Part shown: one piece after another, positions 31,695 to 59,303 of the stretch
How positions within the stretch are numbered: the first letter of the stretch is position 1
How the letters are laid out: every line of letters starts with the position of its first letter
Assembly: GCA_951406725.2 (NCBI GenBank)
Contig: OX597814.1
Span: 194,308,001 to 194,372,000 of the forward strand
Source: Octopus vulgaris
Lineage: Eukaryota
Direction of reading: 5' to 3'
DNA: 64,000 nucleotides
Made by a program: the position numbers and the translations under genes
Notes under the pieces: generated by a model
Databases searched by the model: none
What the model was told of the DNA's origin: nothing
The model's input: only the letters and a program-made list of their open reading frames with translations

Positions 31695-32250
31695 CCAAAA
31701 ATAACAATCAGGTTAAAAAGATAGTTGCACATGCGGCAGGTGTGCGTACCAAAACCACATCCAAGAGCCATATATTTATTTAAGTTTTTTTTTTATTGTT
31801 TGTCATAAGTACAGGGGGGGTCGAATTCTGAGCCAAGTTTGGAACAGAGCGAACCAGTAAGCATCGTTTTGATATGCCTCTTATTAATAAGAAGCGTGAC
31901 AAAGCATTTCTGAAAAATTTTATTTGGATTCCTAGGTTTTACATGTCAGAACAAACTTTTTCAGAAAAATGCATTTCTGAAGGGGAGGTGTGAATCTGCA
32001 TTAGCCCGATCCCCAAAATCTTTTAGTGGGTGCATCGAATAGCTTCTCCATAGAGTGAACCAGTAAACATTTTGATGTGCCTCTTATTAATAAGAAGAGG
32101 CGTAAATCTAAATTAGCCCATCGCCAGTGAGTAGACTATAACCTCTATGGCCAAGAAGACCCCTGCCCAAAATAACAATAAGGTTAAAATTGTTGCACAT
32201 GCAGCAGGTGTGAGTACCAAAACCACATCGAAGGGCCATATATTTAAGTT
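31695..32250 (+). mobile_element. Merlin-like transposase relic between ~85-bp direct repeats (31695-31780, 32166-32250)
   Basis: 31800-31915 is nearly identical to 54340-54452 (Merlin-like motifs); CCCAAAAATAACAAT.AGGTTAAAA...GTACCAAAACCACATC is duplicated. Confidence 0.5.
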
Positions 32251-32269
32251 TTAATATATGCCCAAGAGG

Positions 32270-32574
32270 AACGTGCAGCCATTGGTGTCAAGATTGCTGA
32301 CAATGTGGCTAACCTATTTATGGTATGGTGGGATAGGACACTCACAGAGGAATTACCAGAGAACTCCATAAACCTAACCATGTACTCTCACTACGTGGAG
32401 GATATCAACATATTAGCCAGAGCACTCTTACAAGACAATGTTGCTGATTTAGAAGTTGACGCTACGGAAAGCATCCAGCAAATAGCTAACTCCATCCACC
32501 AGAGTATAGAAATAATGACTGAGTATCCTAGCAAGCACCCTAACTATAGACTACCCATTTTTGACACTGGTTAG
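32270..32574 (+). mobile_element. Penelope-like RT fragment
   Basis: AAIGVKIADNVANLFMVWWDR, YSHYVEDINI (YVDD-like), [14 protein letters not shown]. Confidence 0.55.
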
Positions 32575-32760
32575 GGTTTGATGAAATTGGTTAGGAATTG
32601 ATGAAATACCTGCTAAGTGGAGTGAGAAAATAGCTAGGTCAACAGAAGGTCGTATATGGGCTAAATTTCTTGAAAGAGGTGGATAAACGGTTCATCCAGT
32701 ACCTAAATGCAGCACAAGGCTCTGTCAGTGAACAGGTCACGGTCTCAAAGCAACAAAAAT

Positions 32761-32865
32761 AGAGATTTAGAAATTTAGTATTTCTGATTTTGATAACCAG
32801 TGAATAGACTTCACTGAAATTTAGATATATACATTACGAGTCAAGACAAATATCACCAGCTGACC
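32761..32865 (+). repeat. Retrozyme-like unit S0 (3' part), ending in target site ATCACCAGCTGACC
   Basis: Nearly identical to the 3' ends of units 34511-34871 and 38532-38886. Confidence 0.8.
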
Positions 32866-34510
32866 GCTTTTTTTTGTTGTTTGGTGTCGGATATTTTTGA
32901 TTGCGTTGTTGTTGTGTCGCAATTGTGAGTTCGAATTCGTTGGTGGAAGCAGTTGCAGTGTGGTGAAGTTTTTGGAGGTTTTTTTCTCGAAAATACAAAC
33001 CCAAACGTACGCAGGAGCAGCAGGCAGGGGCCTGGCTGCGAGTGAACTACAGTTGGAAGAAGTTATCATCGAGAAGGAGATTTTGAAGAAATATTTCGAC
33101 AGCTTGAAGAAGGAGGGTGACTGTGTGAGGGTCACACCGCCTGAAGAAGAAGTGAAAGAAGCAGAGAAACGTAATATAACATACAGAACGTGGAACGTGG
33201 CTTCGAAGAAAATAGAAGTGGCAGCGATAGAGGAAATTGAGTGGTGTCTGCAAGGAATTGAAGGAGAAACTGCCTTCTACAACAGAGGTAGAAAATGTGC
33301 AACGGTGGTCGTTCATTTTAAAAACGAAGACAAAGCAAAGAAGAATGCCACGAAAATACTGAAAACAGAAAAATGGATGTTATTACCAAGCTATTGCAGA
33401 AAGGGGGCAGTAAGAATACGGATCAGTAAAATTTCACCAGAGATGAACATGGAAAGAATTTTGGCGGCAGTGGTATTCAACTGCAAAGAGAGCGTTGAAA
33501 TATTGAAAGTGGAAAAATCGAAAGATGTACAGTGGTGGGGTTATGCGGTGCAGGCTTTGGTTCATATAACTATGCCAGACCTGTACAACATCCCAGAGGA
33601 GTTGGTGTTCCCCGACGAGACATGTCTCAGACTCGTGGTAGAAGGGAGACACCCAGTGTGCTACACATGTAAAATTAGAGGCTACATGAAGAATGTGTGT
33701 CCGACGAGAACATTGGAGCCTCGGACAGATATATTGCAAATGGCGGATGTAGAAGAAGAATGTGTGAACACAGAAAATGTGGAAAGTGGTGACGAGTTGG
33801 AGAAAGAAAAGGAAAGAACAGAAGGAAAAGATAGAAAGAGAGCGAGGGTGGAATCACCACCTAAAGTTCAAAAAAAGAAAAAGCTCCCAAAAAAGACAAC
33901 AGACGAAATGGAAGATCGAACGTACGAAGAGAGAGATGCAAAAGCGAAAGCGAGAGAACCGGCAAATTTAACGGCAGACCAAGAACGGGAAAGAAGAGTG
34001 GAAGAGAAGTTAAAAGTATGTAAGGAAGGAGGAAGACCCGAAGGGAAAAATCTTAAAGTAGTAATATTGTATATGAAAGACAAAGAAATCGAAAAGAGGC
34101 TGGCAGGTAAAAAAGGATTAATCAGGGTTAGGTTGAACCCAAAAATATTTGATGACCAAGTGAAGTCGGCGGTCGTAGAGAAAGAGACATTTATGAAATT
34201 GAAAAGTGTGTTTTCGACTGTTTGTGAAATGCAATATATCCGTTACGACAGTTTGCCAGCGATTGTAGACCAGGAGAGGTTAATAGAATACATTACAGAT
34301 GAACGCCCAGCATAGCAGAATTGTATTTAAATGAAACTGCGAGTTTTGGGGGGCTCGTAAGCCGTTCCATTTCATTCATTACAAATAATTCATTTTCATA
34401 TCATATTTTTCGATTTTTTTTTATTATTTGTACCCCATGTCCTGTATTGTAATGTCCCCTCTTAATTCGGACCATTGTGCCTATAATAAAGATTTAATGA
34501 CCAGCTGACC
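32866..34510 (+). mobile_element. ORF1-only L1/Tx1-type retroelement E1 (subfamily A1), including 3' target duplication
   Basis: T-rich 5' UTR, single ORF1, 3' UTR with hairpin TGCGAGT-TTTGGG-GGCTCGTA and AATAAA; flanked by ATCACCAGCTGACC / ATGACCAGCTGACC. Confidence 0.8.
32993..34315 (+). pseudogene. ORF1 (gag-like, RRM-like region + zinc knuckle); frame open but probably decayed
   Basis: Aligns with the 34989 and 39000 ORFs, but the start position is ATA (ATG in paralogues) and the knuckle reads CYTCKIRGYMKNVC (His to Tyr). Confidence 0.7.
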
Positions 34511-34871
34511 AGTGTCTGCTAGTCTAGGCCGACGAAGGACAATCATCCTGAAACATGTGACCCTAGATGTAGCCCGGGCGGCCAGGGGTGTTTGTCTCCC
34601 CTTCGAAAATGTAGATAAGGACACAGGAAAAATGTGTCAAAGCCATCAGGAGGCGTCGATGCTTCCTAGGGCTATACAGCAGTGGTGTACCCCCCTACTG
34701 TCACGTTCATGTTAGATTGACAGTATACAACCATTCTATCGCCCCACCACCGTACATGTCTCTACGAGAGATTTAGAAATTTAGTATTTCTGATTTTGAT
34801 AATCAGTGAATAGACTTCACTGAAATTTAGATATATACATTACGAGTTGAGACAAATATCACCAGCCGACC
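34511..34871 (+). ncRNA. Retrozyme-like unit S1 (~361 bp) with degenerate type I hammerhead (34518-34573)
   Basis: TCTAGG-CCGACGA-AGGA-caatca-TCCT-GAAA-CATGTGAC-CCTAGA; long-range complementarity of 34576-34616 with 34835-34871. Confidence 0.65.
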
Positions 34872-36388
34872 TATTTTTTTTGGAGTCGTTATTCTGGTGT
34901 GTTTGTTTTGAGTGCGTCATTGTGAAGAGGTTGTGAGTTCGAGTTCGTTGCTGGAGGACGTGGTGAATTTTATTTGGAGATTTTGAAAATGCAAGACCAG
35001 ACGTATGCGAGAGCAGCAGGCAGAGGCCTGGTTGCGAGTGAACTAGAAATGGAAGAAGTGGTAGTCGAGAAGAAAACTTTGGAAAGATATTTCGACAGTT
35101 TGAAGACGGAGGGTGACTGCGTGAGAGTCACACCGTCCGAAGAAGAAAAAAACGCGGAGAAACGTATGATAACATACAGGACATGGAGTGTGGCATCAAG
35201 AAAAATAGAAGTGGCAGAGACGGAGGAAATAGAGAAATGTCTGCAAGGAATTGAGGGTGAACTTACCTTTTTCAACAGAGGAAGAAAATATGCCACAGTG
35301 GTTGTACACTTTAAAAATGAAAATGAAGCGAGAAGGAATGCGACAAAAATTCTGAAATCTGAAAGTTGGACATTATTACCTAGTTACTGCGGAAAGAGGG
35401 CAGTCAGAATAAGAATTAGTAGGATTTCGCCCGAACTTAACATGGAGAGGATACTAGCAGCAGTAGTTTTCAACTGCAAGGAAAGTGTGGAGATGTTGAA
35501 GGTGGAAAAGTCAACAGAAGTTAAGTGGTGGGGATATGCGGTGCAGGTTCTGGCACATATAACCGTGCCAGACCTGTACAACATCCCGGAGGAGTTGGTC
35601 TTCCCTGATGAGACACGACTTAGAGCCGTGGTAGAGGGAAGGCCCCCAGTTTGTTATAATTGCAAAATAAGAGGACACATGAAGGATGTGTGCCCGCTGG
35701 AGAAAACGATAGCACCGGAGGCTGTAACGAAGGAGTGGAAAGATACGTGTGTGGAGGAGGGAGAAGTGCAGGAGAAAGCGATAGCATTGGAGGCTCGAAC
35801 AGAGGAGCAGCTAGTTGAGGATGTGGAGGAAGAATGTGCAAGTGCAGAGGATGAAAGAACAGAAGATAGAAAGAGAACAAGGGTGGAATCACCACCGAAA
35901 GTTCTAAAAACATTCGTGTTGTATGTCAAAGACACAGAAATGGAAAAAAGACTTGCAGGTAGGAAAGGATTGATCAGGGTTAAGATGCACCCAAAACTGC
36001 ATGGTGACGATGTGAAAGGGGTAGTTGTAGAAAAAGAGACATTTACAAAATTGAAAAGTATGTTTAATAATGTTTATGTAGCGCAATATATACGTTATGA
36101 CAATTTGCCAAATGTGATAGAACAGATGGAATTGATAGAGTATATTACGGACGAACGTCCAATATAAGAGAACTGAAATATATGTAATTATAAAATTGTA
36201 AAATTGTATTTTAAATGAAACTGCGAGTTTTGGGAGGCTCGTAAGCCGTTCCATCCAACTCATTACACATAATTCATCTTCATTTCATATTTTATTTTTT
36301 ACTTTATGTACCCCACGTCCTGTGTTGTAATGTCCCCTCCACATTCGGGCCATCGTGCCCATAATAAAGATATAATCACTAGCTGACC
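34872..36388 (+). mobile_element. ORF1-only retroelement E2 (subfamily A2), including 3' target duplication
   Basis: Same layout and 3' UTR as E1; flanked by ATCACCAGCCGACC / ATCACTAGCTGACC. Confidence 0.8.
34989..36167 (+). CDS. Non-LTR ORF1 protein with CCHC zinc knuckle (61-codon in-frame deletion relative to 39000-40361)
   Basis: ATG at 34989, N-terminal TYARAA, VEGRPPVCYNCKIRGHMKDVC (CX2CX4HX4C). Confidence 0.8.
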   Translation: MQDQTYARAAGRGLVASELEMEEVVVEKKTLERYFDSLKTEGDCVRVTPSEEEKNAEKRMITYRTWSVASRKIEVAETEEIEKCLQGIEGELTFFNRGRKYATVVVHFKNENEARRNATKILKSESWTLLPSYCGKRAVRIRISRISPELNMERILAAVVFNCKESVEMLKVEKSTEVKWWGYAVQVLAHITVPDLYNIPEELVFPDETRLRAVVEGRPPVCYNCKIRGHMKDVCPLEKTIAPEAVTKEWKDTCVEEGEVQEKAIALEARTEEQLVEDVEEECASAEDERTEDRKRTRVESPPKVLKTFVLYVKDTEMEKRLAGRKGLIRVKMHPKLHGDDVKGVVVEKETFTKLKSMFNNVYVAQYIRYDNLPNVIEQMELIEYITDERPI

Positions 36389-38246
36389 GCTTTTAAAAAA
36401 ATTTTCCTCGGAGTATATCAAATAATTTTCTGTTGCTGCAAATCGTTGTGTGAGTTCGTTTCTGTTTGTCTCCTTTGTTGTGTGTTACACGTATAATAAT
36501 TGTTGAACTGTTTTTGACCCAGTAATTTTTGTCCTTCGGGGTAGAAAATTTCTGTGTGTTTTTTTTGTGTGAACTCTTAACCTGTATAGGTTATTTTGAA
36601 AAATTCTTTTGTCATTTGTGACAAGTTCTTCGTTGTCTAATATGGAATTAGACTTAAGGTCTAAAAAAGACTTTCCCGAGATAGGAGAAAGTACAACTGT
36701 TGTTAAACAGAAGGAAACACAGGCAAAACCCAGTATTTCAGACGCCGTAGGCGGCGAAGTGGAAGATTCAATGGAAAAACTATTCAAGTTCAGACCGCTT
36801 AAGCAAAAAAGTGGTGAAGAAACACGATTGGTACCGCCCCCTGAGACTATACAGGCAATACGGGAAAAAATGGTCACCTATAAGGTGTACAATATAAAAG
36901 AAAAACGAATGACCGAAGTAAAATGATCGAAAAGTGTATGGCACCAATATGGAGCAAAGTTTGTCATGTCAACCGAGGTGCAAGAAGCGCAACAGTGGAG
37001 GCGCATTTTGAGACGGCGGAAGAAGCAAGGCAAATTTCGACGCAAATGTTGAAAAACGAGAATATTATACTGCTACCCTTATATTTGGGGTGCAGAACAG
37101 CAAAAGTGACACTGGAAGACATACCAAGGGGCTATGATGTGATGTGGGCAGCAACAGCGGTCATTTTTGATGTTGAAATCAAAATTGACAATTTTGAGTA
37201 TGAAGAGGAAAATAGCAAAACACTGGAGAGACCAGCAGCTGGAGATGACTATCCAGAGGGGAAAATGCGATGCTGGAAAGCCTACCAGACAGAGTCTTCG
37301 TGGGGGAGGGGCACTCCATACGAGTTTCGGTGGAAGGACGCAGGCCCAGATGTTTTAAGTGCGGGCAAAAGGGGCCACGTTCGCTCCGTTTGCACAAAGA
37401 AAAATAATACGGGCAATGCCCCTCCCCCTCAAAACGCTGTGAAGAACGCAGAAAGCAGCAAAGTGGAGAACAAAGTAATGACTGGTGAAAGCAAGGAAGA
37501 AAAAAAAAACAGGTCGAACTCCAAAAAGAAGGAAGAAAAGAACTGAATGCAAGAATGAGAAAGGAAAGGAGGAGGAAATTAATACAACAAAAACAAATAT
37601 ACAAGAAGAAGGGATGGAATTCACGAACGTGTCGAACAAAAGGAGAAAATCCATCAACCCTGACTCCCCACCTGTAACAAAAAAAAAAAAAAAACGCAGA
37701 CGAACAAATTAAAAAAATTCTCCAATCCCACCACGCTGGTACTACATTTATAGGCCAACATTTTAACAAACCCCACTCCCCATCTGTAAAAAGGTTTAAA
37801 CCCAATGAAAAATGTATAGCATACACCACAAAGAACGAGAGAGTAGTAACATATGTGAAAGCAAATACGCAGATCAAGTGCTACAAAGCGACCGAGAGGG
37901 ATGCGGAGTGGCGATATGCAAGGGTCAGCGAAGAAGAATGGAAAGGAAGAATCGTCCAAGAACACATAAAAGCCGGCTTCATTAAGGATGTCACCCAGGA
38001 GGTGACAACTGTGAAATTATACGTCAGCCTGGCAGCCACACCAACCCAGAGCCCGGTGGCAACGCCGGTGAAACGCCCAGCAGCAACGGCGAGAGTGGGG
38101 GAGACAGGCAGAAGGAATCTGTCAGGCGCCCTCTCGCAACCGTAAGTAAATAATTTTCCTTTTTGCGATGATTAAGTTAGGTTGTATAAATGTGCGTGGA
38201 ACGGGGTCAAAATGGAAACAGGCCTGTTTTCTGGACGACCTCATTT
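36389..38246 (+). mobile_element. L1/Tx1-type element E3 (family B): frameshifted ORF1 and first ~26 codons of ORF2, cut by a duplication breakpoint
   Basis: Begins right after the duplicated target; knuckle VEGRRPRCF.CG..GHVRSVC across frameshifts; ATGATTAAGTTAGGTTGTATAAATGTGCGTGGA at 38168. Confidence 0.75.
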
Positions 38247-38531
38247 GTGAAATGCAATATATCCGTTACGACAGTTTGCCAGTGATTGTAGACCAGGAGA
38301 GGTTAATAGAATACATTACAGATGAACGCCCGGCGTAGCAGAATTATATTTAAATGAAACTGCGAGTTTTGGGGGGCTCGTAAGCCGTTCCATTTCATTC
38401 AATACAAATAATTCATGTTCATATCATATTTTTCAATTTTTTTATTATTTGTACCCCATGTCCTGTATTGTAATGTCCCCTCTTAATTCGGGCCATTGTG
38501 CTTATAATAAAGATTTAATCACCAGCTGACC
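38247..38531 (+). mobile_element. Duplicated 3' end of E1 (ORF1 tail + 3' UTR + target site)
   Basis: Near-identical to 34224-34510; joined to E3 through TTT microhomology (38244-38246). Confidence 0.85.
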
Positions 38532-38886
38532 GTTGTCTGCTAGTCTAGGCCGACGAAGGACAATCATCCTGAAACACATGTCCCTAGATGCAGCCCGGGC
38601 GGCCGGAGGTGTTTGTCTCCCCTTCGTAAATGTATACAAGGACACAGGAAAAATGTGTCAAAGCCATCAGGAGGCGTCGATGCTTCCTAGGGCTATACAG
38701 CAGTGGTGTACCCCCCTACTGTCACGTTCATTTTAGATTGACAGTATACAACCATTCTATCGCCCCACCACCGTACATGTCTCTACGAGAGATTTTTAGT
38801 ATTTCTGATTTTGATAATCAGTGAATAGACTTCACTGAAATTTAGATATATACATTACGAGTCGAGACAAATATCACCAGCCGACC
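38532..38886 (+). ncRNA. Retrozyme-like unit S2 (~355 bp) with type I hammerhead (38539-38594), predicted cleavage after GUC at 38582
   Basis: TCTAGG-CCGACGA-AGGA-caatca-TCCT-GAAA-CACATGTC-CCTAGA. GGGCGGCCGGAGGTGTTTGTCTC pairs with GAGACAAATATCACCAGCCGACC; TCGTAAATGTATA pairs with TATACATTACGA. Confidence 0.7.
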
Positions 38887-40589
38887 TATTTTTTTTTTGG
38901 AGTCGTTATTCTGGTGTCGTTTTGAGTGCGTTATTTGTGTGACAAGTTTGCGAGTTCGTTGCTGGAGGACGTGGTGAATTTTATTTGGAGATTTTGAAAA
39001 TGCAAGACCAGACGTATGCGAGAGCAGCAGGCAGAGGCCTGGTTGCAAGTGAACTAGAAATGGAAGAAGTGGTAGTCGAGAAGAAAACTTTGGAAAGATA
39101 TTTCGACAGTTTGAAGACGGAGGGTGACTGCGTGAGAGTCACACCGTCCGAAGAAGAAAAAAACGCGGAGAAACGTATGATAACATACAGGACATGGAGT
39201 GTGGCGTCAAGAAAAATAGAAGTGGCAGAGACGGAGGAAATAGAGAAATGTCTGCAAGGAATTGAGGGTGAACCTACCTTTTTCAACAGAGGAAGAAAAT
39301 ATGCCACAGTGGTTGTACACTTTAAAAATGAAAATGAAGCAAGAAAGAATGCGACAAAAATTCTGAAATCTGAAAGTTGGACATTATTACCTAGTTACTG
39401 CGGAAAGAGGGCAGTCAGAATAAGAATTAGTAGGATTTCGCCCGAACTTAACATGGAGAGGATACTAGCAGCAGTAGTTTTCAACTGCAAGGAAAGTGTG
39501 GAGGTGTTGAAGGTGGAAAAGTCAACAGAAGTTAAGTGGTGGGGATATGCGGTGCAGGTTCTGGCACATATAACCGTGCCAGACCTGTACAACATCCCGG
39601 AGGAGTTGGTCTTCCCTGATGAGACACGACTTAGAGCCGTGGTAGAGGGAAGGCCCCCAGTTTGTTATAATTGCAAAATAAGAGGACACATGAAGGATGT
39701 GTGCCCGCTGGAGAAAACGATAGCACCGGAGGCTGTAACGAAGGAGTGGAAAGATACGTGTGTGGAGGAGGGAGAAGTGCAGGAGAAAGCGATAGCATTG
39801 GAGGCTCGAACGGAGGAGCAGCTAGTTGAGGATGTGGAGGAAGAATGTGCAAGTGCAGAGGATGAAAGAACAGAAGATAGAAAGAGAACAAGGGTGGAAT
39901 CACCACCGAAAGCTCTAAAAAAGAAAAGAATCAAAAGCAAGACAACAGAAGAAAAAGAAGAGCGAACGTGCAAAGAAAAGGACGTAAAAGAGAAGGCGAG
40001 AGAGCAGACAATGACAGAGGTAAACCTAGAATGGAAAACAAAAGTGAGAGAGCAGTTGGATGCTTGTAAAAAGGGAAGAAGACCTGTAGGAAAAAACCTG
40101 AAAGCATTCGTGTTGTATGTCAAAGACACAGAAATGGAAAAAAGACTTGCAGGTAGGAAAGGATTGATCAGGGTTAAGATACACCCAAAACTGCATGGTG
40201 ACGATGTGAAAGGGGTAGTTGTAGAAAAAGAGACATTTACAAAATTGAAAAGTATGTTTGATGATGTTTATGTAGCGCAATATATACGTTATGACAATTT
40301 GCCAAGTGTGATAGACCAGATGGAGTTGATAGAGTATATGACGGACGAACGTCCAATATAAAAGAACTGGAATATATGTAATTATAAAATTGTAAATTGT
40401 AAAATTGTATTTTAAATGAAACTGCGAGTTTTGGGAGGCTCGTAAGCCGTTCCATCCAACCCATTACACAAAATTCATCTTCATTTCATATTTTATTTTT
40501 TACTTTATGTACCCCACGTCCTGTGTTGTAATGTCCCCTCTACATTCGGGCCATCGTGCCCATAATAAAGATATAATCACCAGCTGACC
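38887..40589 (+). mobile_element. ORF1-only retroelement E4 (subfamily A2), including 3' target duplication
   Basis: Duplicate of E2 with full-length ORF; flanked by ATCACCAGCCGACC / ATCACCAGCTGACC. Confidence 0.82.
39000..40361 (+). CDS. Intact non-LTR ORF1 protein (453 aa from ATG) with CCHC knuckle, charged linker and conserved C-terminal domain
   Basis: Open frame; CYNCKIRGHMKDVC; C-terminus YIRYDNLP.VIDQMELIEY.TDERP is shared with E1. Confidence 0.82.
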   Translation: MQDQTYARAAGRGLVASELEMEEVVVEKKTLERYFDSLKTEGDCVRVTPSEEEKNAEKRMITYRTWSVASRKIEVAETEEIEKCLQGIEGEPTFFNRGRKYATVVVHFKNENEARKNATKILKSESWTLLPSYCGKRAVRIRISRISPELNMERILAAVVFNCKESVEVLKVEKSTEVKWWGYAVQVLAHITVPDLYNIPEELVFPDETRLRAVVEGRPPVCYNCKIRGHMKDVCPLEKTIAPEAVTKEWKDTCVEEGEVQEKAIALEARTEEQLVEDVEEECASAEDERTEDRKRTRVESPPKALKKKRIKSKTTEEKEERTCKEKDVKEKAREQTMTEVNLEWKTKVREQLDACKKGRRPVGKNLKAFVLYVKDTEMEKRLAGRKGLIRVKIHPKLHGDDVKGVVVEKETFTKLKSMFDDVYVAQYIRYDNLPSVIDQMELIEYMTDERPI

Positions 40590-42872
40590 ACCTTTCTTTT
40601 AATTTTTCCTCGGAGTATATCAAATAACTTTCTGTTGCTGCAAATCGTTGTGTGAGTTCGATTCCGTTTGTCTCCTTTGTTGTGTGTTAAACGTATAATA
40701 ATTGTTGAACTGTTTTTGACCCAGTAATTTTCACCCTTCGGGGTAGAAAATTTCTGTGTGTTTTTTTTGTGTGAACTCTTAACCTGCATAGGTTATTTTG
40801 AAAAATTCTTTTGTCATTTGTGACAAGTTCTTCGTTGTCTAATATGGAATTAGACTTAAGGTCTAAAAAAGACTTTCCCGAGATAGGAGAAAGTACAACA
40901 ACTGTTGTTAAACAGAAGGAAACACAGGCAAAACCCAGTATTTCAGATGCCGTAGGCAGCGAAGTGGAAGATTCAATGGAAAAACTATTCAAGTTCAGAC
41001 CGCTTAAGCAAAAAAGTGGTGAAGAAACACGATTGGTACCGCCCCCTGAGACTATACAGGCAATACGGGAAAATGGTCACCTATAAGGTGTACAATATAA
41101 AAGAAAAACGAATGACCGACGTAAAATGATCGAAAAGTGTATGGCACCAATATGGAGCAAAGTTTGTCATGTCAACCGAGGTGCAAGAAGCGCAACAGTG
41201 GAGGCGCATTTTGAGACGGCGGAAGAAGCAAGGCAAATTTCGACGCAAACGTTGAAAAACGAGAATATTATACTGCTACCCTTATATTTGGGGTGCAGAA
41301 CAGCAAAAGTGACACTGGAGGACATACCAAGGGGCTACAATGTGATGTGGGTGGCAACAGCGGTCATTTTTGATGTTGAAATCAAAATTGACAATTTTGA
41401 GTATGAAGAGGAAAATAGCAAAACACTGGAGAGGCCAGCAGCTGGAGATGACTATCCAGAGGGGAAAATGTGATGCTGGAAAGCCTACCAGACAGAGTCT
41501 TCGTGGGGGAGGGGCACTCCATACGAGTTTCGGTGGAAGGACACAGGCCCAGATGTTTTAAGTGCGGGCAAAAGGGCCACGTTCGCTCCGTTTGCACAAA
41601 GAAAAATAATACGGGCAACGCCCCACCCCCTCAAAACGCTGTGAAGAACGAGAGAGCAGCAAAGTGGAGAACAAAGTAATGACTGGCGAAAGCAAGGAAG
41701 AAAAAAAAAAACAGGTCGAACTCCAAAAAGGAGGAAGAAAAGAACGGAATGCAAGAATGAGAAAGGAAAGGAGGAGGAAATTAATACAACAAAAACAAAT
41801 ATACAAGAAGAAGGGATGGAATTCACGAACGGGTCGAACAAAAGGAAAAAAATCCATCACCCCTGACTCCCCACCCGTAACAAAAAAAAAACGCAGACGA
41901 ACAAATTAAAAAAATTCTCCAATCCCACCACGCTGGTACTACATTTATAGGCCAACATTTTAACAAACCCCACTCCCCATCTGTAAAAAGGTTTAAACCC
42001 AATGAAAAATGTATAGCATACACCACAAAGAACGAGAGAGTAGTAACATATGTGAAAGCAAATACGCAGATCAAGTGCTACAAAGCGACCGAGAGGGATG
42101 CGGAGTGGCGATATGCAAGGGTCAGCGAAGAAGAATGGAAAAGAAACGTCGCCCAAGAACACATAAAAGCCGGCTTCATTAAGGATGTCACCCAGGAGGT
42201 GACAACTGGGAAATTATACGTCAGCCTGGCAGTCACACCAACCCAGAGCCCGGTGGCAACGCCGGTGAAACGCCCAGCAGCAACGGCAAGAGTGGGGGAG
42301 ACAGGCAGAAGGAATCTGTCAGGCTCCCCCTTGCAACTGTGAGTAAATAATTTTCCTTTTTTTTTTCGATGATTAAGTTAGGTTGTATAAATGTGCGTGG
42401 AATGGGGTCGAAATGGAAACAGGCTTGTTTTCTGGACGACCTCATTTCACATAGAATCGATGTAGCTATTGTCAGCGAGTCCAAGATGAAAGGACCCCAA
42501 GCGTTCTCACCACTTCTCAATGGTTACGAGAAATTTATTTCTCCTAGCCGGGGGGGGGGGGGGGGTGCAGGCGTGGCAGTCCCTTTCAGGAAGAACTTGG
42601 ACTTACAGGTAAGTACTGTCTTTCTGGACCCAGAAGGTAGGCTGGTTGTCCTAGATGTGACTCACGTGAGTAAGCAGTCCTTCAGGTTGGTGGCTGTTTA
42701 CGCTCCTAATGGGCGTGGGCAGACCGGTTTTTATCGGGAACTGGATAGGAAAGGGAATCCTGGCCTCAAGGCTCTACTAGCGAGCTTTAATCTAGTAGAC
42801 CGTTTTCGACTGGATGAGCCGAACGTTCCACAGTGGACGTGGAGTAACAACAACGGCTCACGCAGATCATAC
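40590..42872 (+). mobile_element. L1/Tx1-type element E5 (family B): frameshifted ORF1 and APE endonuclease part of ORF2, 3'-truncated
   Basis: CFKCGQKGHVRSVC knuckle; ORF2 from 42369 reads CINVRG...IVSES...GVAV...DPEGRLVVLD...LVAVYAPN...WTWSN. The GDFN segment is missing (deletion). Confidence 0.82.
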
Positions 42873-44300
42873 ATAGTTGTATGGTATGTTGTACCATATA
42901 TAATTACGTAATTTCCTGTTTCTGCCCCTATTCCCTCTTATATGATCGGTGTTACTCTCGTCGGAAGGGTTTTCATTACCTACTATTCTTATTGGTTCGA
43001 CTTCTTTCTATAAGTTGCTTAGTCCTGTTAGAAATTAAATTAGAATTTGCATTAGCTTGAACTGTGTTATTACCTTTATTTAGTCAAATTTGTTTAGATC
43101 TTAAATGAGTAGCTCTGGAATTTGGAGTTCGTTTATAAGGGGGAGTTTTACAGTTGACGGGTGTTCCTGGTGGTTCTACATAGGATATTCTCTGGGTATA
43201 CCCAGCACTAGAGAGGGCCTGGTTGTAGTGATGTGCGTAATCATTGAATATATTCTTGTTGGAGGATAGCTTAGTAAGTCTGTCTGAGATGGCTTGGACC
43301 GTGGTGTTAATTATACAGGGTGGGTGGTTGGAAGAGGTGCTAATGAATCTAGTTGTTTCTTCGGGTTTCCTATATGGGTAGTGAAGGTGCTTGTCTAACG
43401 TAACATCTAAGAAGTTTACTATTTTCATATTAGTCATGAATTCTAGTTTTAGATTGAAAGATTTGAAGAATAGTCTGATCTTTTTTCTAATTCTTTCTAG
43501 TTTACTCTTATTATTAGTGGGGTACAAGAAGAGAGCGTCATCTCTGTAGAGACCCCCCTGTAGGTCCGGTACCTCCGAGAATAGCCCCGACCAAGTCAGT
43601 CACCTGAGCTGAATCGCTCGAGCCCATAGCCACATCGAAGTTTTCGGGGGTATCGGATCTGGTCCAAAGTTTACCGTCAAATTCTATTATAGTTTTTCTG
43701 GCTAAGAGTATAATGTCAATCTTTTCCCTGTCTATAAGCGAAAGGTTGCGGGCATATATAAGGGATTTGTTAAGTAAGATGGGGGATATACTGGCGTAGT
43801 AGTTAGCTATGTCAAACTGAATAAACGAGTAATTGGATCTCTTATTGATTGTGTTAAACCACTCCAGCACATCGTCGGTGTTAACCCATAAGTGGAGTGG
43901 GATGTGGGGTTTGATGCGTGGGATCACCTTGTCTAGAATATTTTTACTGAGCATGCCTATATCCGATTTAGTCGGACAAATTAACCTTACTCCTACGTTT
44001 TCCGGGAAATTTTTCTTGTAGTCCTTGATGCTGATTTTAGGTTCCTGAGGTTTAATTGGTTCCGTCCTATCTAGAAGGTCCAATTTTGTCATTACTTCCG
44101 GGTTGTCAAAATGGTAGGCCGCCCACCTAATTCTTCTAATAAAGTCCGTAGTCTGGTGGATGAGGGTCGTCATGTATGCTTTATCGGTGTGAAGAGGTAT
44201 GTCCTTGGGAGAGAAATTGGTGTTAATCCTTTGTATCGTCATTTTTGAGTTTTTCAAGTACTAAAGGTTGTCGAGGTTATATAGGATCCAATCCAGGTGA
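42872..44300 (-). mobile_element. Penelope-like element (Naiad-like RT), deleted and frameshifted
   Basis: FIRRIRWAAYHF, RLICPTKSDIG, FIQFDIANYYASI, FDVAMGSSDSAQVTDLVG, LYRDD, VNFLDVTLD, SNHPP, RNYIWYNIPY. Confidence 0.8.
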
Positions 44301-44306
44301 CAATAT

Positions 44307-47300
44307 AAAGCTTTATGAAAATAAACAAAAGACGGAGGCAGGTGGAGTACAAACAACAATTGTATTAGTATGGCGCTCAGGAATATAAATAAAACAAGTC
44401 TTTTACGTTTCGAGCCTACGCTCTTCAACAGAAAGATACACAGAAAAGAAACACGGAGAGAAACAAGGAGAGAAAAAAAATGCGTGCAGAAGCTAGCGAA
44501 TCAACATGGCGAACTGATTCTGGCCAGAAGTCAGAGATCAAACGTGAGACGCAAGAGTGAAAATAGGGGAGATAACAGGGTCAAATGACTTCGCCCCAAC
44601 ATAAGGGTGCGTGTGTGTATGAGGGAGTATGTGGTGCGTATGAAAGGTCTGGACGTGTGTATGTATGTATGTATGTATGTATGTATGATGTGATGTGTAA
44701 TGTCGTATGGTGTAGTGTAGAGAGGGGAGATGAGGGGGAGAGTGAGAGAGAGTGGAGGAGAGGGGGGTGATATGAGGGGGAGAGGGGAGGAGGGAAGAGG
44801 GGAGAAGGAAAGAGAGAGAAGAGGAAAGGTGAGAGTGAGGAGGGTGATATGAGGGGGGAGGAAAGAAAGAGGGGTGAGGGTGAGATGAGAGGGGGAAAAG
44901 GAAAAAGAGGAGGGAGGAGGAGGGGATGGGGAGAGGGAAGGAGAGGAGAAGAGGAGGGGGATGGGAAAGGAGGGGAGAGGAGGAGGGGGTGAGAGAGAAG
45001 GGGAGTGAGGGAGCAGAGAGAAGGAGAAGAGGGAAGAAGAGGAAAGAGGAGGGAAAGAGAGCAAGGGTGATAAGATGAAGGACCGAAGAGAAGGAGTCGG
45101 GGGGGGGAGGTTAGATGAGGAGCAGGGAAGAGTTGAGATCAAATGGCGTAAAAGAGCGAAGAGAGAAGATTAATCCCTGTTCACGGCACAAACGGGAATC
45201 CAGATGGCCTCTGTGCAAGGACAAACCGAACACAGACAGGTGTTGCAAGGAGTGACCGGTGGAGCGGAAATGGCGTGAGACCGGTGTGTCGTTGGCAAGG
45301 CAGATGTCACGGAAGTGTTCCACGAACCGGTCAGCCAAGCGGCGTCCCGTTTGTCCGATATACAGAGAATGGCAGAGAGAGCAAGAGATGCAATAGATGA
45401 TATTACTGGAGGTGCGGGTGAAGGAGTTGATGATGCGATAGGGTCAATGATGGGTGCCAGTGAGGAGGGCGGTGTTGGAGAGGTAGGGGCAAGTGTGGCA
45501 ATGTGCGCGGGAGCAGGGGAACGAGCCAGGTTGGGAGGTAGGGTCAGGAAAGGAGCTGTGGACCAAAAGGTCTCGTAGGTTATGGGCTCGTTTGAAGGAG
45601 GGGAGGGGTGGTTAGGGAAGAGGTGTGAAGTGGACAGGTCAGACTGGAGATGCCGGAAAGCTCGAAGAATGGTGCGTTGGAGAGGTAGGGTCGTGGGGTG
45701 GTGAGGGGAAAAGGGAGGCGGGAGACTACCGGGCGGGTTCGGGGGGAGAGAGCAGATTTACGGTCTACGGAACATGCTCTGGCAAGGGCGGTGTGGATAG
45801 TGGTGAGGGGGTATCCACGTAGGATGAAGTGGCGAGCCATGCGTTGAGACTGAGTCTCAAAGTCATGGTCATCACTACAGAGCCTACGTAGACGGAGGAA
45901 TTGGGAATAGGGGATGGAAAGCTTGGTGTGTTTTGGGTGGGAGGAAGAGAAGTTTAGGTATGAGTGTGCGTGTGTGTTTGTAGTGAATGGAGGTGGTAAG
46001 AGTGGAGTGATGAATGCTGACCGAAATGTCGAGGAAGGAGACAGAGGTGTTGGAGATAGTGGAGGGCAGGATGGAAGGATTGAACGAAAGAGAGGAAGGA
46101 ATCTAGATATTCACGGGAGAGTGAGGTGGCACCGATAATGTCATCAATGTAACGACCGTATAGTTCGGGAGTGGGACCAGTGAAATTAGAGAATATTTGG
46201 GCCTCAACATAGCCAACGAACAGGTTCGCATAGTTGGGGCCCATTCGCGTTCCCATGGCCACTCCCGAGACCTATTGGTAGAACTCGCCCGCAAACGAGA
46301 AGCAGTTAAGAGAAAGGACAAGTTCGGCCAGACGAATGAGTGTGGAGGTGTCGGGTTCGGGGTTGGGGTGGAGGTCAAGAAAGTGTTGAAGTGCATGCAG
46401 TCCTTCGTGGTGAGGGATGACGGTATAGAGAATCTGGATGTCCATTGTAAAAGTATTTTGGAGGAGCCGGGAGGAAAGGAGAAAGAGTTGAACAGCCGGA
46501 GAGCATGGTTGGTGTCATGGATGTTGGAGGGAAGAGACGCCACTAGAGGGGCAAGGACACGGTCGAGGTATTTTGAGATGAGCTCCGTGGGGCAGTTGCA
46601 GGCGGAGACAATGGGGTGGCCAGGGTTGTTGGGTTTGTGGATTTTGGGGAGGAAGTAAATGGTGGGGGTGCATGGGGTTCGCACAATTAGGTTGGATGCG
46701 GTGTGGGGGAGACGGGAGGACGAGATGAGGTCGTGGACAGTAGAGGATACCGTCTGTTGGTAGCTACGTGTGGGGTTAGAGGACAGAGGGGAGTAGAAGG
46801 AGGTGTCATTGAGTTGGCGGAGAGCCTCGGCCCTGTAGAGGTCCGCATGCCACACCACCACAGCTCCACCCTTGTCAGCCGGTTTGATGATAATGTCAGT
46901 GCGCCGTTGGAGGGAACGAAGAGCCGAGAGCTCGGTCGGAGAGATGTTGAGGCGGCGGTGGCGCCTGGAGAAGTTGAACCGCTCCAACGCACGCTGACAG
47001 GCGCCCGCGAAATGATCAACCACTAGGAACTGGCCGGGGGCCGGCGTCCACGGGGATGGTCGGCGGCCCAGGTCAGTGAAGCAGTCCTCCTCGTTGGATG
47101 CGGGTGGTCGGTCGCGGAAAAACACACCCAACCAGACGTGGCGCACAAAGCTGTGGACATCAACTCGCGTCTGGAATTCCTTACAGGATGGAGTGAGGAG
47201 GATGAAACGCAGACCCCTACCAAGGACGGAGCGTTCCGCTGCAGAGAGGGGAAGATTAGGGGGAATGGTAACAACAGACGGAAGTGGAGAAGGGGTGGGT

Positions 47301-49150
47301 GGAATAGAAGTACGAGGGGTGGATGGAATAGAAGTACGAGGGGTGGATGGAATGGGAGGAGTAGGAGGGGTGGTAGGGCTGGTGGAGGTCTGAGGGGTGG
47401 TAGGGCTGGTGGAGGTCTGAGGGGGAGGGATTGGGGAGGTGTTGGGAGGGACAGTGGGGTTAAGTGTGGGCGGGTGGAGCCTATCAGGAGGGGAGAAGGG
47501 TAGTGGAGGAGTTGGGGTGGTGGCATCGTGTGTGGTGGAATAGAGGAGTGATTGGAGTTTAAGAAGTTTGGTATTGGAAAGAAATTGATGGAAGAGGTGA
47601 TTCAAATGGATAATGAAGCATAGCGTGTTTGGAGCATGGAAAGGCGGCAGAGAGGAGAAAAATGTGGAAAAAGCAGGAGGGAGGAGGCAGTCGATGGTAT
47701 GTAGTTTAGAGAGATTGGAGCGAATAGTGGCCCGCATAAGGCGGCAAGATGTGGTGCGGAGTATGGGTAAGATGGAAGAAGCCGAGTGGAGAGCAGGGTG
47801 GAAATGGAGGCAGAAACCTTTAGGGATGAGTCGGTGATGTAGGCAGCGGCTTAGAAAAGAGACGTGGCTAGAGAAGCGGGTTTTTTTAAAAAGAAGCAGA
47901 GAGAGATTAATGGACGGCTGAAAGCAGTTTGGAGGGAGTAGGCGGAGGTAATCTTTCAAACGGTGGTGGATAGTGAGGAGGTAAAATTTGTAATCCGGCA
48001 TGGTGGAATAGTGAAAAAAAAGGAGAAAAAAAAGAGAAAGAAAAGGGGGAAAAAAAACAAACGTTCGAAAAAAACAAAAAACAAACGTTCGAAAAAAAAC
48101 TAGATAAAAAAGGCAGTAGGGGCAGAAAATAAAGGCGGAGAAGATGGGACAAATGGAAAAAGGAAAGAAAGGAAGCAGAGAGAGGGGGAGGCAAAAAAAG
48201 GGGGTGCAGGGAGAGGAAACAGAGTATGGACATCCAGAGAAGAAGGAAACGACAGGAGGAGGACAAAAAATGCAGGAAATTGTGGAAAGTATGAAATGAA
48301 TGTAAAAAAAGATAATATAAGAGAAAATAAAATAAAACGAACGGGACAGTTTATACGAACAAGTTGAGAGTTCAAGGTAAAAAATGTTTAGACGTCGTGG
48401 TATATTTTTTAAGGATTTCACATCAATAACCAAGTCACTTTGATCCGTGAAGGAGAGGTGCGGCCGGTGGTAAGTATCCAAGAGGTGAAGAAAATCCAAT
48501 GCAGAGGTACTAGTTGATAGTGGTGTTGGTAGAATATAGGATGAAAGTGAGACCACGTGAGCGCGTAATATATAACGGGAAGCTTTATGAAAATAAACAA
48601 AAGACGGAGGCAGGTGGAGTACAAACAAACAATTGTATTAGTATGGCGCTCAGAAATATAAATAAAACAAGTCTTTTACATTTCGAGCCTATGCTCTTCA
48701 ACAGAAAGATACACAGAAAAGAAACACGGAGAGAAACAAGGAGAGAAAAAAAATGCGTGCAGAAGCTAAGGATTCAACATGGCGAACTGATTCTGGCCAG
48801 AAGTCAGAGATCAAACGTGAGACGCAAGAGCGAAAATAGGAGAGATAACAGGGTCAAATGACTTCGCCCCAACATAAGGGTGCGTGTGTGTATGAGGGAG
48901 TATGTGGTGCGTATGAAAGGTCTGGACGTGTGTATGTACGATGTGATGTGTAATGTCGTATGGTGTAGTGTAGAGAGGGGAAATGAGGGGGAGAGTGAGA
49001 GAGTGGAGGGGAGATGAGGGGGAGAAGGAAAGAGGAGGGAGGAGAGGAAAGGTGAGTGAGGAGGGTGAGATGAGGGTGAGGGGGAGATGAGAGGGGGGAA
49101 GGGGGAGAAGGAAAGAGAAGAGGGAGGAGGAGGGGGATGGGAAAGGAGGG
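44307..49150 (-). mobile_element. Penelope-like element with direct terminal repeats (pLTRs ~44307-44760 and ~48579-49010), RT + GIY-YIG, frameshifted
   Basis: ORF from ATG ~48001: IKPADKGGAVVV, YFLPKIHKPNNPG.PIVS, AMGTRMGPNYANLFVG, RYIDD; GIY-YIG region IYCISC...YIGQTGRRLADRFVEH at ~45150-45440; ~450 bp repeats at both ends. Confidence 0.9.
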
Positions 49151-49319: not shown

Positions 49320-51480
49320 CCCCTTAGTGTTCTAACTGGCCGTAGCCGGCCAAAATGAATTCCCCTTTATTTGTTCAAACCGGCCAAATCCGGCCGTACC
49401 GACCTCTACGAAATCGTTGAAAGAATAAACAAATCACGTTATTAAATTCTCGTAGCTTTGAGATAATGCAAGATGAAGCCTTTCCCGCCTTTATTCAAGT
49501 ATAAATACTGTGAAATTGTTTAGACCACATGGTTATTTCCACGTTTGAAGAGAACTGTATATGTTTGTTGTGAAAGAAATGGCATCAGCAAGTAGCGATT
49601 CTGATTTTGAAGGTTTTACTATTGAGGATATTGAAGATAATAGAAATATTAAAATTACTAAAAGAGAACAACGGCAGCGTTTCCGGAAAATAATAGTTAT
49701 CGCCATACTAATATGGCATTCTTATAAAAATAAGAATAAAGCTGTCCGCTTATTAGCTCCATGAGGCCATCGCCTTAAGTTAGCTATTTGATACACAAAC
49801 TGTATCCATATAACCTTCGAACAAGGGAAGTCAGTCGCTCCACACTACTTGACCGGCAGCTATCAACGAAAACAAAAGTATTTTGACTTCGGATGAATCT
49901 GATATTGATATCAGTAATTACTCATCGGACGAAGATTTCGATAACGAAAGTGAAGAAAATGAAAGTCATGAAAACAATAGTGTAAGCAAGGCAACATGGT
50001 CGAAAATTACGACACCAGTCACAATTTCTGATTTTACTGAAAACACTGGTCCACAACACAATTTACCTCCTGATGCTCAACCACTGGACTATCTGTTTTT
50101 ATTTTTGCCGGAAAGTTTTTTTGAAAATGTTGCGGAGGAAACGAACAAATATGCGCAACATTTAATTTCTGTTCGAGGAAGAAATGATCCGCTATGGCAG
50201 CCAACTAATACTGCGGAAATGAGAGCATTTTTCACAATTAACATTATGTTTGGAGTTAAACAGCTTCCTCGACTGTGGAACTATTGGAGTCCCAATGTAA
50301 GGTATGGCAACCTATATATTTCGAGTATCATGTCGAAGACGAGGTATTCGAAAATATCTCAGTATTTACATTTAACTGATTCTTCCAATGCCTCCAACAA
50401 AAACGACCCAAACTACGATCCCCTGTACGAAGTACATCCCGTGATAGATTTACTTGTAAATAATTATAAAACTGTTTATTTACCTGGGAAAAATCTCAGT
50501 GTAGATGAAGCCATGATAGGATTTAAGGGCAGAGTACATTTTCGGCAGTACATGCCTGCCAAACCTACTAAATGGGGGATCAAGGTATGGGAAGTTTGTG
50601 AATCGGAGATGGGATACTGTGTAAACTTCGATGTTTACACAGGTAAGAAGTATAATGGGAAAAGACCGCATGGATTGGGACATGATGTTGTATGGTCCCT
50701 TACACAACCTTTTCACCATCAGCACCGACACCTCTATTTTGATCGTTTTTTTTCTTCAGTGGCTTTGGCTGAAAATCTTGCACATGTAAGCACTTACATG
50801 TGCAGCACTGTTATGGGAAACCGTAATGGTTTACCCCATGAAATAAAAACAAAATTTTAAAAAAAGAGGGGACATTTTGCAAATGCAAAAAAATTTATTA
50901 GTTACTGCATTTAAAGACAAAAGACAGATTTTATTTCTGTCTTCTAACAAACAACCTGGTGTTGGGGCTGAGGGGAAACCACTCGTGAATATTTGTTACA
51001 ACAAATATATGGGTGGGGTAGACAAATCCGACCAATATCGGGCATATTACCCAGTTGGTCGACCTGGGAAGAAATGGTGGAGGTACATTTTGTGGTTTTT
51101 AGTTAATTTAACTATAGTAAATGCACACATTGTATACGTAAAAAGCCACAAAGTACCTCCGCCACCGAAAGACTACGACCACTTGAAATTTCGGGTTGAC
51201 ATCGCATCTCAGTTACGCGAGGGCTTTTCTTCTAGAAAGCACAGAACTGGGAAAAAAGCAAAATTAACTGAGGTGGATGTCAACAGAGAAAATATTGACT
51301 TTCATCAAATGGAAAAAATAAATGGAAGGAAAAAAGTGTGCTGACTGTGTTCACAGCAAAACAGAAAAACTGCGAAAGGGTACCAGATCAAGACCTCGTA
51401 TATGTGTTCGTTTTGCCAAGTGCCCTTGTGTAAAGGGTGCTTTGGACAATTTCACGACAGAAATATGCCATAAATGTATA
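49320..51480 (+). mobile_element. piggyBac transposon (PGBD4-like transposase, frameshifted at ~50860 and ~51340); right TIR not found
   Basis: TTAA|CCCCTTAG left end at 49316-49320; LSVDEAMIGFKGR, QYMPAKPTKWGIK, LYFDRFFSS, YNKYMGGVDKSD, KKWWR, Cys-rich C-terminus. Confidence 0.88.
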
Positions 51481-56921: not shown

Positions 56922-57479
56922 CATTCATCCATTCCCTACACCTTTCACACCTGTCGCACAATTTTTTTCTTCTCAGGCCTTAGGACAGCAGCAGCACATT
57001 GGGGTGAGAAGATGGGGCTGAGGGGAAGGCTACACTGGTGCATGCGCACATAGGGATACACATCTGAAAAGAACAGAATGAAGTGGAGCAAGAACACAGA
57101 GAAATGAAAAGTGTCGCTGAAGAGGTCACAGATGTCTGACGAAAGGTGTCCAGACAATGCACATAAAAATAAAACCAGTAAAAAATGAGTGAAGAAAAAA
57201 AAAATATATATATATATATTACTTCCGGTTTTCGTAGAGGAAAGACGTGTTTGCTTTTGCTCTGTGAAAAAACAAAAAGGTTCGCATAAATCGAAATAAT
57301 CTACTAAAAGTAACAAAACGTAGAACTTGTTAACTCATAAGGTCTACTAAAATACATTAATTAAAAATATATTAATTAAAAACGTAATATATTTCGCTTG
57401 AAGCCAATTATAATACAGTAAAGTTAGTTACGCATGCTAGAATCTTCACCGAAAAAGCACGTGGTGGCAAGTCTTTAAT

Positions 57480-59303
57480 TTATCTCCAGCCAAAAGTAAG
57501 AAGGAAAAAGAATTGTTTTCTTTTCTGTTGTGACAAAACAAAAAATATTTACGCGGTGATTCCCGATACCTACAACAGACTAGCTGATAACGCCATCACA
57601 GCTAAGTACAAAAAAGTTGATGACACGGCTTTAACTGAAACTAACTTAGCCGGGAAGAAAATCGCCACTTCCCTTAAACTGGATGACCGAACAGAACCTC
57701 TGAGGGTGAAGTCCCCACACTTCACCCTGAAAGACCACAAAAACAATTTCGACAATAAACCATCGGTCCGACTGATTAACCCAATCAAGTCTGACATTGG
57801 ATCCGTCAGCAAGAAGATCCTGGACAGGATTATACCTAAAATACGTGAAGCCTCACCCCTTCCACTCTGGAATAGGACTTCCGAGGCAATAACTTGGTTC
57901 CGGGATTTACCTGACAAGAGCAACACCCGCTTCCTACAATTAGATATCAAGGAATATTACGCCTCTATATCGGAGAGCCTGCTGATTGACGCGATTAACT
58001 TCGCTAGGACCTTTTCCACCATCACCGAAGCCGAGCAGGATGTGATCCTCCATGCATGTAAGACCTTTCTTTACCATGACGGATCCCACTGGATCAACAA
58101 TAAATCAGAGACCCCCTTCGACGTCAGCATGGGTGCTAGTGACTCGGCTGAAATAAGTGACCTTGTGGGCCTATTCATCCTCCATAGGTTGAAGACCCTA
58201 TTCACAGGCCTCTCCGGTGGTCTCTACCGCGATGATGGCCTTTTTGCCCTCCACAATATAAACCCCAGGACCACGGATGGGTTCCGGAAAAACCTTTACA
58301 CTTTTTTTAAAAACTTAGGCCTTAGGATTACCTTAGATTCGAACTTAACCAAAGCTAACTTCCTTGACGTTACCCTCGATTTAGAACCCTCCCTTTATTA
58401 CCCGCACCATAAACCTAATGAATCCCTTAGATACATAGACATTAATTCTAACCACCCCAAAAATATATTAGACAACCTAGTGAAAAGGTGTCTCCATTAG
58501 GATATCTAGCCTCTCTGCCACCGAGGATATCTTTAATGCCGCAGCCCCCTATTACGATGCCCTGGCCCGCAGTGGCTTTAGAGATAAGATCACCTACATT
58601 AGCATAGCCCCTCGCCCACCCAAGAATAATAGGCGAAGACACATTAGCTGGTACAACCCCCCCTTCAACCGTGAAGTTTCAACACCTGTAGCTAAAATTT
58701 TCTTCACTCTCTTACAAAAACACTTCCCCACCCAACATAAGTACTATACAATCCTTAATAAGAACACCATTAGACTCTCCTACTCCACCACACCCAATCT
58801 AGCTAGGAACCTAGCCAACAATAACGTCAAAAAACTACTTGTTCCGAAGCCCATCCAGCATCCAACAGCAACTGCAATTGCAACTGCCCTGATAAGACTA
58901 CTTGCCCCTCAACAAGAACTGCCTACAGAAAGATCTCGTCTACATATGCGATGTACGATCAGGCCCCGATGATAAAAGAAAATCGTACATCGGAATGACC
59001 TCAAATAGTTTTAAGACTCGCTGGTACGCCCACACACATTCGTTCCGGCAACTTGACAAATCTAACCAGACTACTCTTGCCGCCCACATCTGGCACCTTA
59101 AAAGGAACTCCATCCCCTTCAAGATCAAGTGGAGACTACTCCAGAGAGCGCGTTCTTACACGGGAGGCCATACTTGCTGTGACCTTTGCATTTATGAGAG
59201 CTTGGAGATCTTATTCGCCAAAGGCCCTCTCCTCAACAAGATCTCGGAACACTCCCCAAACTGTATGCACAAAATCTATGCAAACTACAAAAATTTTTGT
59301 TAG
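57480..59303 (+). mobile_element. Penelope-like element (Naiad-like): RT + C-terminal GIY-YIG, frameshifted, 5'-truncated
   Basis: TLKDHK, RLINPIKSDIG, FLQLDIKEYYASI, MGASDSAEISDLVG, GLYRDDG, WYNPPF, CNC..CPL..CL, VY...YIGMT..FKTR..H..SF, CDLC, C.H. Confidence 0.88.

Follow-up and report, generated by a model that had tools for sequence, protein, structure and literature searches.

The window analysed here is a 64-kb stretch of the Octopus vulgaris genome (contig OX597814.1, positions 194,308,001 to 194,372,000, forward strand). Between positions 32761 and 42875 it holds an array in which two kinds of retroelement, A and B, lie at one 14-bp target word of S, a repeat with a predicted hammerhead ribozyme. 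The array runs in the order S0 (partial), A1, S1, A2 and B, followed by a duplicate copy:

32761..32851 (+): S0, promoter end of a hammerhead repeat unit; proximal sequence element (PSE)-like core at 32796-32802 (one mismatch); TATA-like word ~26 nt before the target word
32852..32865 (+): target word, 5' duplication copy for A1, with the S promoter's predicted start (+1) on or next to its first bases
32866..34496 (+): A1, element with open reading frame (ORF) 1 only; frame open over 32864-34315, with the family's start codon altered; 5' end rich in T; AATAAA immediately ahead of the 3' end
34497..34510 (+): target word on the 3' side of A1, with a single change
34511..34857 (+): S1, full repeat unit; hammerhead cleavage triplet changed, descriptor fails; PSE-like core 34802-34808
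34858..34871 (+): target word on the 5' side of A2, its position 10 being the element-type C
34872..36374 (+): A2, first copy, ORF1-only; ORF1 34989-36167; 176-nt internal deletion
36375..36388 (+): target word between the stacked A2 and B (word scan)
36389..38246 (+): B, first copy, 5' part of an autonomous long interspersed nuclear element (LINE), cut at the duplication breakpoint near the ORF2 start
38244..38517 (+): A1 3' end repeated, with which the second 4-kb copy opens (self-comparison)
38518..38531 (+): target word, doubling as the 5' arm in the outer part of helix I of the hammerhead (word scan, helix alignment)
38532..38872 (+): S2, complete unit; core of a type I hammerhead at 38550-38556, with the cut predicted after 38582; PSE-like core 38817-38823
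38873..38886 (+): target word on the 5' side of the second A2 (word scan)
38887..40575 (+): A2, second copy; intact 453-aa ORF1 39000-40361 with two predicted folds resembling RNA-recognition motifs (RRMs), a zinc knuckle and a conserved C-terminal domain
40576..40589 (+): target word between the second A2 and B (word scan)
40590..42875 (+): B, second copy; frameshifted ORF1; ORF2 start (endonuclease, from 42369) with an internal deletion; 3' part missing

A scan of the window for the 14-mer, allowing up to two mismatches, found eight places, all on the + strand. Seven lie in the array, ending at 32865, 34510, 34871, 36388, 38531, 38886 and 40589; the eighth (two mismatches, at 24315) is in an unrelated place. 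Self-comparison shows 34221-38246 recurring as 38244-42447 with 96% identity, and because of this 4-kb tandem duplication the seven words represent four distinct junctions, that is, three insertion events plus a duplicate. A preliminary description of the array had listed six word-bearing junctions; their positions are exact (as seven copies), but they are not six independent events. A2 and B are indeed stacked with a target word between them, and A1, A2 and B do share the word as described, although A carries ORF1 only and both B copies of the window are broken and 3'-truncated, the second reaching the start of the endonuclease.

The hammerhead repeat as a target

We searched the genome with S, scoring the best 40 of 2,194 candidates. 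In this best-scored set, 24 of the 28 S loci outside the window have neither A nor B nearby; these are partial tandems, often with an inverted 5' part, and carry one word per S-S junction. An exact-pattern count of sites in S-a (families of the repeat are labelled S-a to S-g) gave 254 empty against 17 filled, and 0 for the controls. S thus exists independently of the ORF-bearing elements, as had been proposed. The units follow each other head-to-tail with a period of 355-367 nt across 14 junction pairs and are non-coding (longest open frame 68 codons).

A type I hammerhead descriptor is passed by 39/48 distinct S-a copies, 12/21 S-b, 4/6 S-d and 5/9 S-e, by 0/5 S-c and 0/1 S-g, and by 0/4,500 shuffles overall (0/2,400 for S-a). 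Within the window, the copy at 38518 fits the descriptor, with a predicted cut after word position 65 (38582), 51 nt beyond the word and close to the ~50 nt first suggested; the copy at 34497 fails because its GUC has become GAC. An alignment of 12 S copies shows 96-100% pairing in the four core helices and two-sided changes at three pairs; the target word contributes to the outer arm of helix I (80% paired). Cleavage is uncertain: the core is a CCGAYGA variant (CCGAUGA in S-a) of the CUGANGA consensus, variant cores across the S families include CCGAUGA and UUGACGA, helix III is short, and Rfam gave no hammerhead match in the window, either at the gathering score or at E up to 10. A viroid hammerhead with this core change is reported to cleave.

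With its type I hammerhead, short palindromic helix III, partial tandems, inverted 5' parts and (AT)n flanks, S matches the anatomy of non-LTR retrozymes and Penelope pseudo-LTRs as outlined in the accessible text of PMC7229834, PMC4209133, PMC8557442 and bioRxiv 10.64898/2026.07.22.740005, and carries a candidate ribozyme. The last of these sources gives 8/9 assayed dimers as uncleaved. S resembles non-LTR retrozymes in length (355-367 nt) and in being non-coding, but differs from what these sources describe in its variant core and in occurring mostly as 1.5-3 dispersed units. No autonomous partner was found, with one abundant Penelope-like family, near locus L205, examined for this role at 26 loci and rejected, having no similarity to S.

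Several observations concern S and its surroundings. Fragments of Penelope-like reverse transcriptase (RT) and GIY-YIG domains lie in the window at 32248-32741, 43084-48637 and 57388-58500; one ends just before S0, and the fragment family has no similarity to S. At locus L229 (1347-4309), an eight-unit S-e tandem follows a B 3' end and terminates at an (AT)n run. At L094 (oriented 6030-6110; G000:C16 near 20780100), a 5'-truncated A starts exactly after the GUC triplet of an S-b hammerhead. Two origins come into question: loss of sequence between 3-nt microhomologies, or template switching to an RNA that had been cleaved, the second of which would demonstrate in vivo cleavage. Finally, an S-e body joined to a 5'-shortened A through a single common junction (L231, L233, L442, L443, L445) is present at no fewer than four loci; this chimera is a LINE derivative headed by a retrozyme.

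Elements A and B and their sites in the genome

Full B copies elsewhere in the genome are ~5.5 kb long and encode ORF1 and a 1,128-aa ORF2 with apurinic endonuclease (APE), RT and zinc-finger regions. Pfam identifies Exo_endo_phos, RVT_1 and zf-RVT on two ORF2 proteins (P0001 and P0193), and the best solved match is human L1 ORF2 (E 2e-58, versus 3e-25 for R2). The nearest named relative is an Argonauta protein (P0004, 64%), in keeping with an octopod host; the relative searches returned no homolog named Tx1, and the metagenome scans yielded nothing close. In a quick, weakly supported RT tree (63 rows, midpoint root, built without named Tx1 or L1 references), the octopod group lies beside elements inserted at U2 nt 36-51, the Keno site, and in U1 and 5S RNA genes (SH-aLRT 84-90). 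B is firmly an APE-RT LINE of the L1/Tx1 group and likely belongs to the Tx1 clade. The original label of a Tx1-like family holds for the group; the placement among named Tx1 elements is weak. Metagenome relatives with 39-41% RT identity duplicate U2 nt 36-51, and distant metagenome relatives at L343, L344, L346, L350, L349, L355, L335 and L378 are inserted at U2 nt 36-51, within 5S rRNA or within U1.

A1 and A2 carry a single ORF, ORF1, with a zinc knuckle (zf-CCHC match just below cut-off) and no ORF2. They differ at 72, 71 and 156 sites in codon positions 1, 2 and 3, and many intact A ORF1 copies are present in the genome, which points to purifying selection on ORF1 and to A as a non-autonomous, ORF1-only element. 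None of 30 matches to the A 3' end belongs to an ORF2-bearing copy. The A and B ORF1 proteins are ~24% identical, their 3' hairpins differ, and only the AATAAAGA end is common to both. No relative of A ORF1 was found among 8,000 scored candidates. Its fold model (mean pLDDT 52, low confidence) gave a weak tandem-RRM match (E 5e-3) and names no targeting domain. With these RRM and zinc-knuckle features ORF1 is Gag-like, as in Tx1-clade LINEs. The C-terminus (window 40083-40358) is a conserved 85-aa alpha/beta domain without a database match, modelled at pLDDT ~80, and is a candidate targeting domain. Long mixed stacks combine A-x, an A subfamily described below, with a further ORF1-only family (L322, L323, L325, L329, L330), which has 30-38% identity with A and B ORF1.

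To see where other copies reside, we used element sequence alone as the query at each element end and scored the best 40 of 130-350 candidates. In 30/30 cases the A 3' end runs into a hammerhead-repeat word (S-a in 19, S-e in 9, S-f in 1 and S-c in 1, two being the window copies), 26 of the 30 B 3' ends are on target (17 S-b, 4 S-c and 5 at U2 +1), and 27 of 30 A1 5' matches lie at hammerhead-repeat words or at U2 +1. Other copies thus share the type of flank seen in the window, a point on which the preliminary description had staked its proposal. Target-site duplications measure 12-21 bp. At U2, B duplicates the first 14 nt (about -3 to +14), leaving the whole U2 without a promoter. A-x is nested in the S-a lineage, has another 3' tail and stacks in a CCAAT/TATA repeat, which at one locus precedes gypsy-like ORFs; at G000:C4:27053609-27066500, at least seven near-identical A-x copies are stacked within one such repeat. 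Mixed A/B stacks also exist.

The targets therefore comprise at least five distinct hammerhead repeats, U2, one U1 and the TATA-box repeat, and B copies less than 1% apart occupy S-b, S-c and U2. S, in its S-a form, is a target of A, as proposed, but the usual targets of B are other hammerhead repeats and U2. The proposal of a retroelement parasitising a retrozyme holds in that S has retrozyme anatomy, but is incomplete: U2, U1 and the TATA repeat are hit without a hammerhead. One pattern match, L424, proved false.

Insertion at the predicted transcription start

The motif ATCAGT(G/C) lies at -57 to -59 in 20/20 U1 genes and at -57 to -61 in 26/30 U2 loci (two of the four misses being B insertions), which is the place of the PSE in the accessible text of PMC4494074. 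Of 45 unstacked 5' junctions, 44 have the same motif or its S-e variant 50-60 nt upstream of the word, against a chance expectation of 16/20,000; exact matches to the S-a form number 233, and the duplications begin 54-58 nt past the PSE-like motif. Hammerhead repeats, U2 and U1 are thus hit at one place relative to the predicted promoter, about 57-60 nt after the upstream motif of U1 and U2.

The independent evidence for a promoter rule is the target switches. B and an A subfamily have switched onto the +1 of U2, and a truncated B onto that of U1 (found with a pattern aimed at them). A-x follows the rule without a PSE: in 4/4 unstacked copies at the TATA repeat, TATA lies at -30, and a 360-bp B fragment sits at TATA+29 of another CCAAT/TATA stretch. 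The 5'-truncated B copies L224 and L230 have likewise inserted at the predicted +1 and are flanked by a duplication. In S, as in the U6 and U1 genes of this genome, a TATA-like word occurs close to -30. Another TATA word ('X2'), before some A-x stacks, was rejected as promoter evidence, as it lies in a retained ORF1-like piece of DNA.

The 5' ends of the elements also bear on where their RNA starts. In 4/4 B copies inserted in U2, U2 nt 1-14 is followed by an S-c-like word (13 of 14 bases) from the predicted +1, and then by the T run with which every element begins; L273, L448 and L457 likewise retain older words. Position 10 of the S-a word is C in 10/11 5' junctions, 3/16 3' junctions and 7/39 empty sites (p 3e-4 and 2e-5). 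These old target words suggest that transcription of the elements likely begins in the host promoter. On the simplest reading, the RNA begins in the target word and its complementary DNA (cDNA) pairs with, and can overwrite, the top-strand copy.

We therefore consider it probable that this L1/Tx1-group LINE family inserts at the predicted +1 of small nuclear RNA (snRNA)-type promoters, likely using the promoter for its own RNA. Nicking by the B-type ORF2 protein would take place ~3-4 nt ahead of +1, where the promoter DNA is open, with only a weak pyrimidine-ATC preference. The cDNA end, as a copy of the target word carried at the 5' end of the RNA, would then anneal to the overhang of the top strand. 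Such pairing would keep each subfamily on its own target while permitting a switch to similar or open starts, and A would use ORF2 in trans. The downstream word copy would restore the hammerhead, leaving it without a promoter. The ribozyme itself is likely a bystander and does not seem to be what fixes the site: the same elements occupy U2, U1 and the TATA repeat, which have no hammerhead, and the site is the predicted +1 in all of them. A bolder version is possible, if somewhat doubtful: a LINE that seeks start sites by position, in which an open or factor-bound promoter (PSE or TATA) guides insertion at +1 whatever the sequence. It would take over the promoter, record earlier targets as 5' words and reprogramme its target through its RNA with no change of protein, with retrozymes as the main reservoir.

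Several points weigh against insertion by promoter position. The motif count is to some extent built in, because the motif comes with every repeat family, and a single ancestor may lie behind the S families. In all targets +1 is a prediction from sequence. The TATA word of S is U6-like, and RNA polymerase III would terminate at the T run, which leaves the model dependent on polymerase II. In an older B group only 8 of 30 loci are on target, with 20 elsewhere and 2 lacking the end; a CpG excess at 24 off-target sites is uncertain (p 0.016 against the window, 0.14 against local flanks; 3/24 windows were misplaced or held element tail). The placement of B in Tx1 and the cleavage of S are, as noted, both weak points.

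Other points favour ordinary Tx1 sequence specificity, in which the ORF2 endonuclease or RNA-DNA pairing reads the word and the match to +1 arises because only promoter-backed copies become sources. An endonuclease-set target is the Tx1 rule stated in the accessible text of PMC4494074. With 9-10 of 14 bases in common among the S-b, S-c and U2 words, the B switches could be a matter of sequence alone, and two filled words (L046, L454) have no PSE core. U1 has the same motif and is rarely hit (0/20 sampled genes; one genome-wide match, without a 5' duplication). Subfamilies cluster by target in both trees (0/200 shuffles as low, with some target labels misassigned to 'oth' by the pattern), and A-x acquired a different 3' tail along with its move to the TATA repeat, which would fit a choice of target by another ORF2 partner. 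Yet the S-a, S-e, U1 and TATA-repeat words share little while the promoter distance is kept, dead-end truncated copies also sit at +1 (L224, L230, L288, L301, L422), and 17/17 exact filled S-a junctions have A-type tails and none a B-type tail. We regard this explanation as unlikely.

Hitchhiking, in which one or a few A or B insertions were followed by spread of an S-element-S composite through Penelope-type machinery copying S, seems highly improbable. It does happen, as a minor route: at L163, L249 and L186 a truncated A adjoins S in the arrangement typical of S insertions, flanked by (AT)n or with the 5' part inverted, showing that A-S read-through RNA was copied in the manner of S, and the S-e/A chimera recurs. 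But filled and empty S copies are alike in diversity (0.057 and 0.051; 39 empty), filled S is nearer to an empty copy in 8/12 cases with two ties, and distances between A and between flanking S copies are uncorrelated (rho 0.18, p 0.13, in a small sample of 12 full A copies in S-a). Nor does it explain duplications around truncated copies, mixed A/B stacks or the U2, U1 and TATA targets. Capture of the ribozyme, with elements placed upstream of a hammerhead so that read-through RNA is cut to a defined 3' end, takes up a further idea of the preliminary description and is scarcely plausible. The cut is predicted 51-52 nt beyond the word in S-a and ~45 nt beyond it in S-b, and the three joined copies imply A-S read-through RNA, but elements end with their own AATAAA, their 3' ends map before the word and not at the cut, no processing is needed at the targets without a hammerhead, and cores are variant with a short helix III, S-c failing the descriptor 5/5. 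Both alternatives explain little.

Relation to known elements and significance

HAL1 and HeT-A are ORF1-only, non-autonomous LINE derivatives. A likewise keeps a selected ORF1 and lacks ORF2, but differs from them in being so distant from the ORF1 of its presumed helper, B, and in having a different 3' hairpin. Ty3 and Dictyostelium TRE5-A insert at sites fixed relative to the transcription start of polymerase III genes. The A/B site is similarly fixed relative to a predicted start, and in its likely dependence on host transcription recalls R2, which is co-transcribed with its host gene according to the accessible text of PMC4494074. Whereas these elements use polymerase III or I genes, A and B lie at snRNA-type and TATA promoters, and no tether was identified.

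Tx1-clade LINEs are described within transposons in the accessible text of PMC4494074 (Tx1 in Tx1D, Tx1-Mar in Mariner-N4, Tx1-9_AMi in Harbinger, Tx1-8_Crp and Tx1-4_AMi in LTR elements), and the accessible text of PMC4494074 and PMC4640811 together places them in DNA transposons, LTR elements, U2 and U5, as well as 5S. A and B resemble the transposon-targeting members in the APE-RT ORF2, a fixed site in a multicopy repeat, duplications, stacks and non-autonomous partners on the same target. Unlike those described there, they target a hammerhead repeat, near-identical copies sit on several sequences, and the common feature is the predicted +1. B also hits U2 genes, as do Keno and Utopia (PMC4640811, PMC4494074, accessible text); these use an internal U2 site, whereas B lies at about -3 to +14 and U2 is a recent side target. 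The accessible text of PMC7229834 and bioRxiv 10.64898/2026.07.22.740005 makes no mention of LINE insertion into retrozymes. Newt satellite 2, a hammerhead satellite with an snRNA-type promoter (cited in the accessible text of PMC2220036), is a parallel to S with its U1/U2 upstream motif.

Two further features of the window lie outside the array. A U6 copy with a degenerate 5' end at 9242-9348 (-) is directly followed by a 400-bp repeat that occurs about ten times in the window, and is likely a retrocopy beside a short interspersed element. A piggyBac-like transposase, recognised from its translation, extends over two frames at 49853-51344.

Tx1 targeting of transposons and of U2 is already known; what would be new here is the target class of hammerhead repeats and predicted +1 sites. 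The full-text literature, taken apart from subscription papers, Repbase, Dfam and supplements, gave no LINE targeting a hammerhead repeat and none inserting at the +1 of snRNA-type promoters. A LINE that seeks start sites, if real, could serve targeted insertion. How target-specific LINEs switch targets is an open question, usually answered by a change of endonuclease. Copies less than 1% apart on three target sequences, in each case at a predicted start, make promoter position, RNA-DNA pairing and endonuclease reading separable in one assay. The array also shows one retroelement living on another, a retrozyme, and several retrozyme families of a mollusc now join newt satellite 2 as carriers of an snRNA-type promoter.

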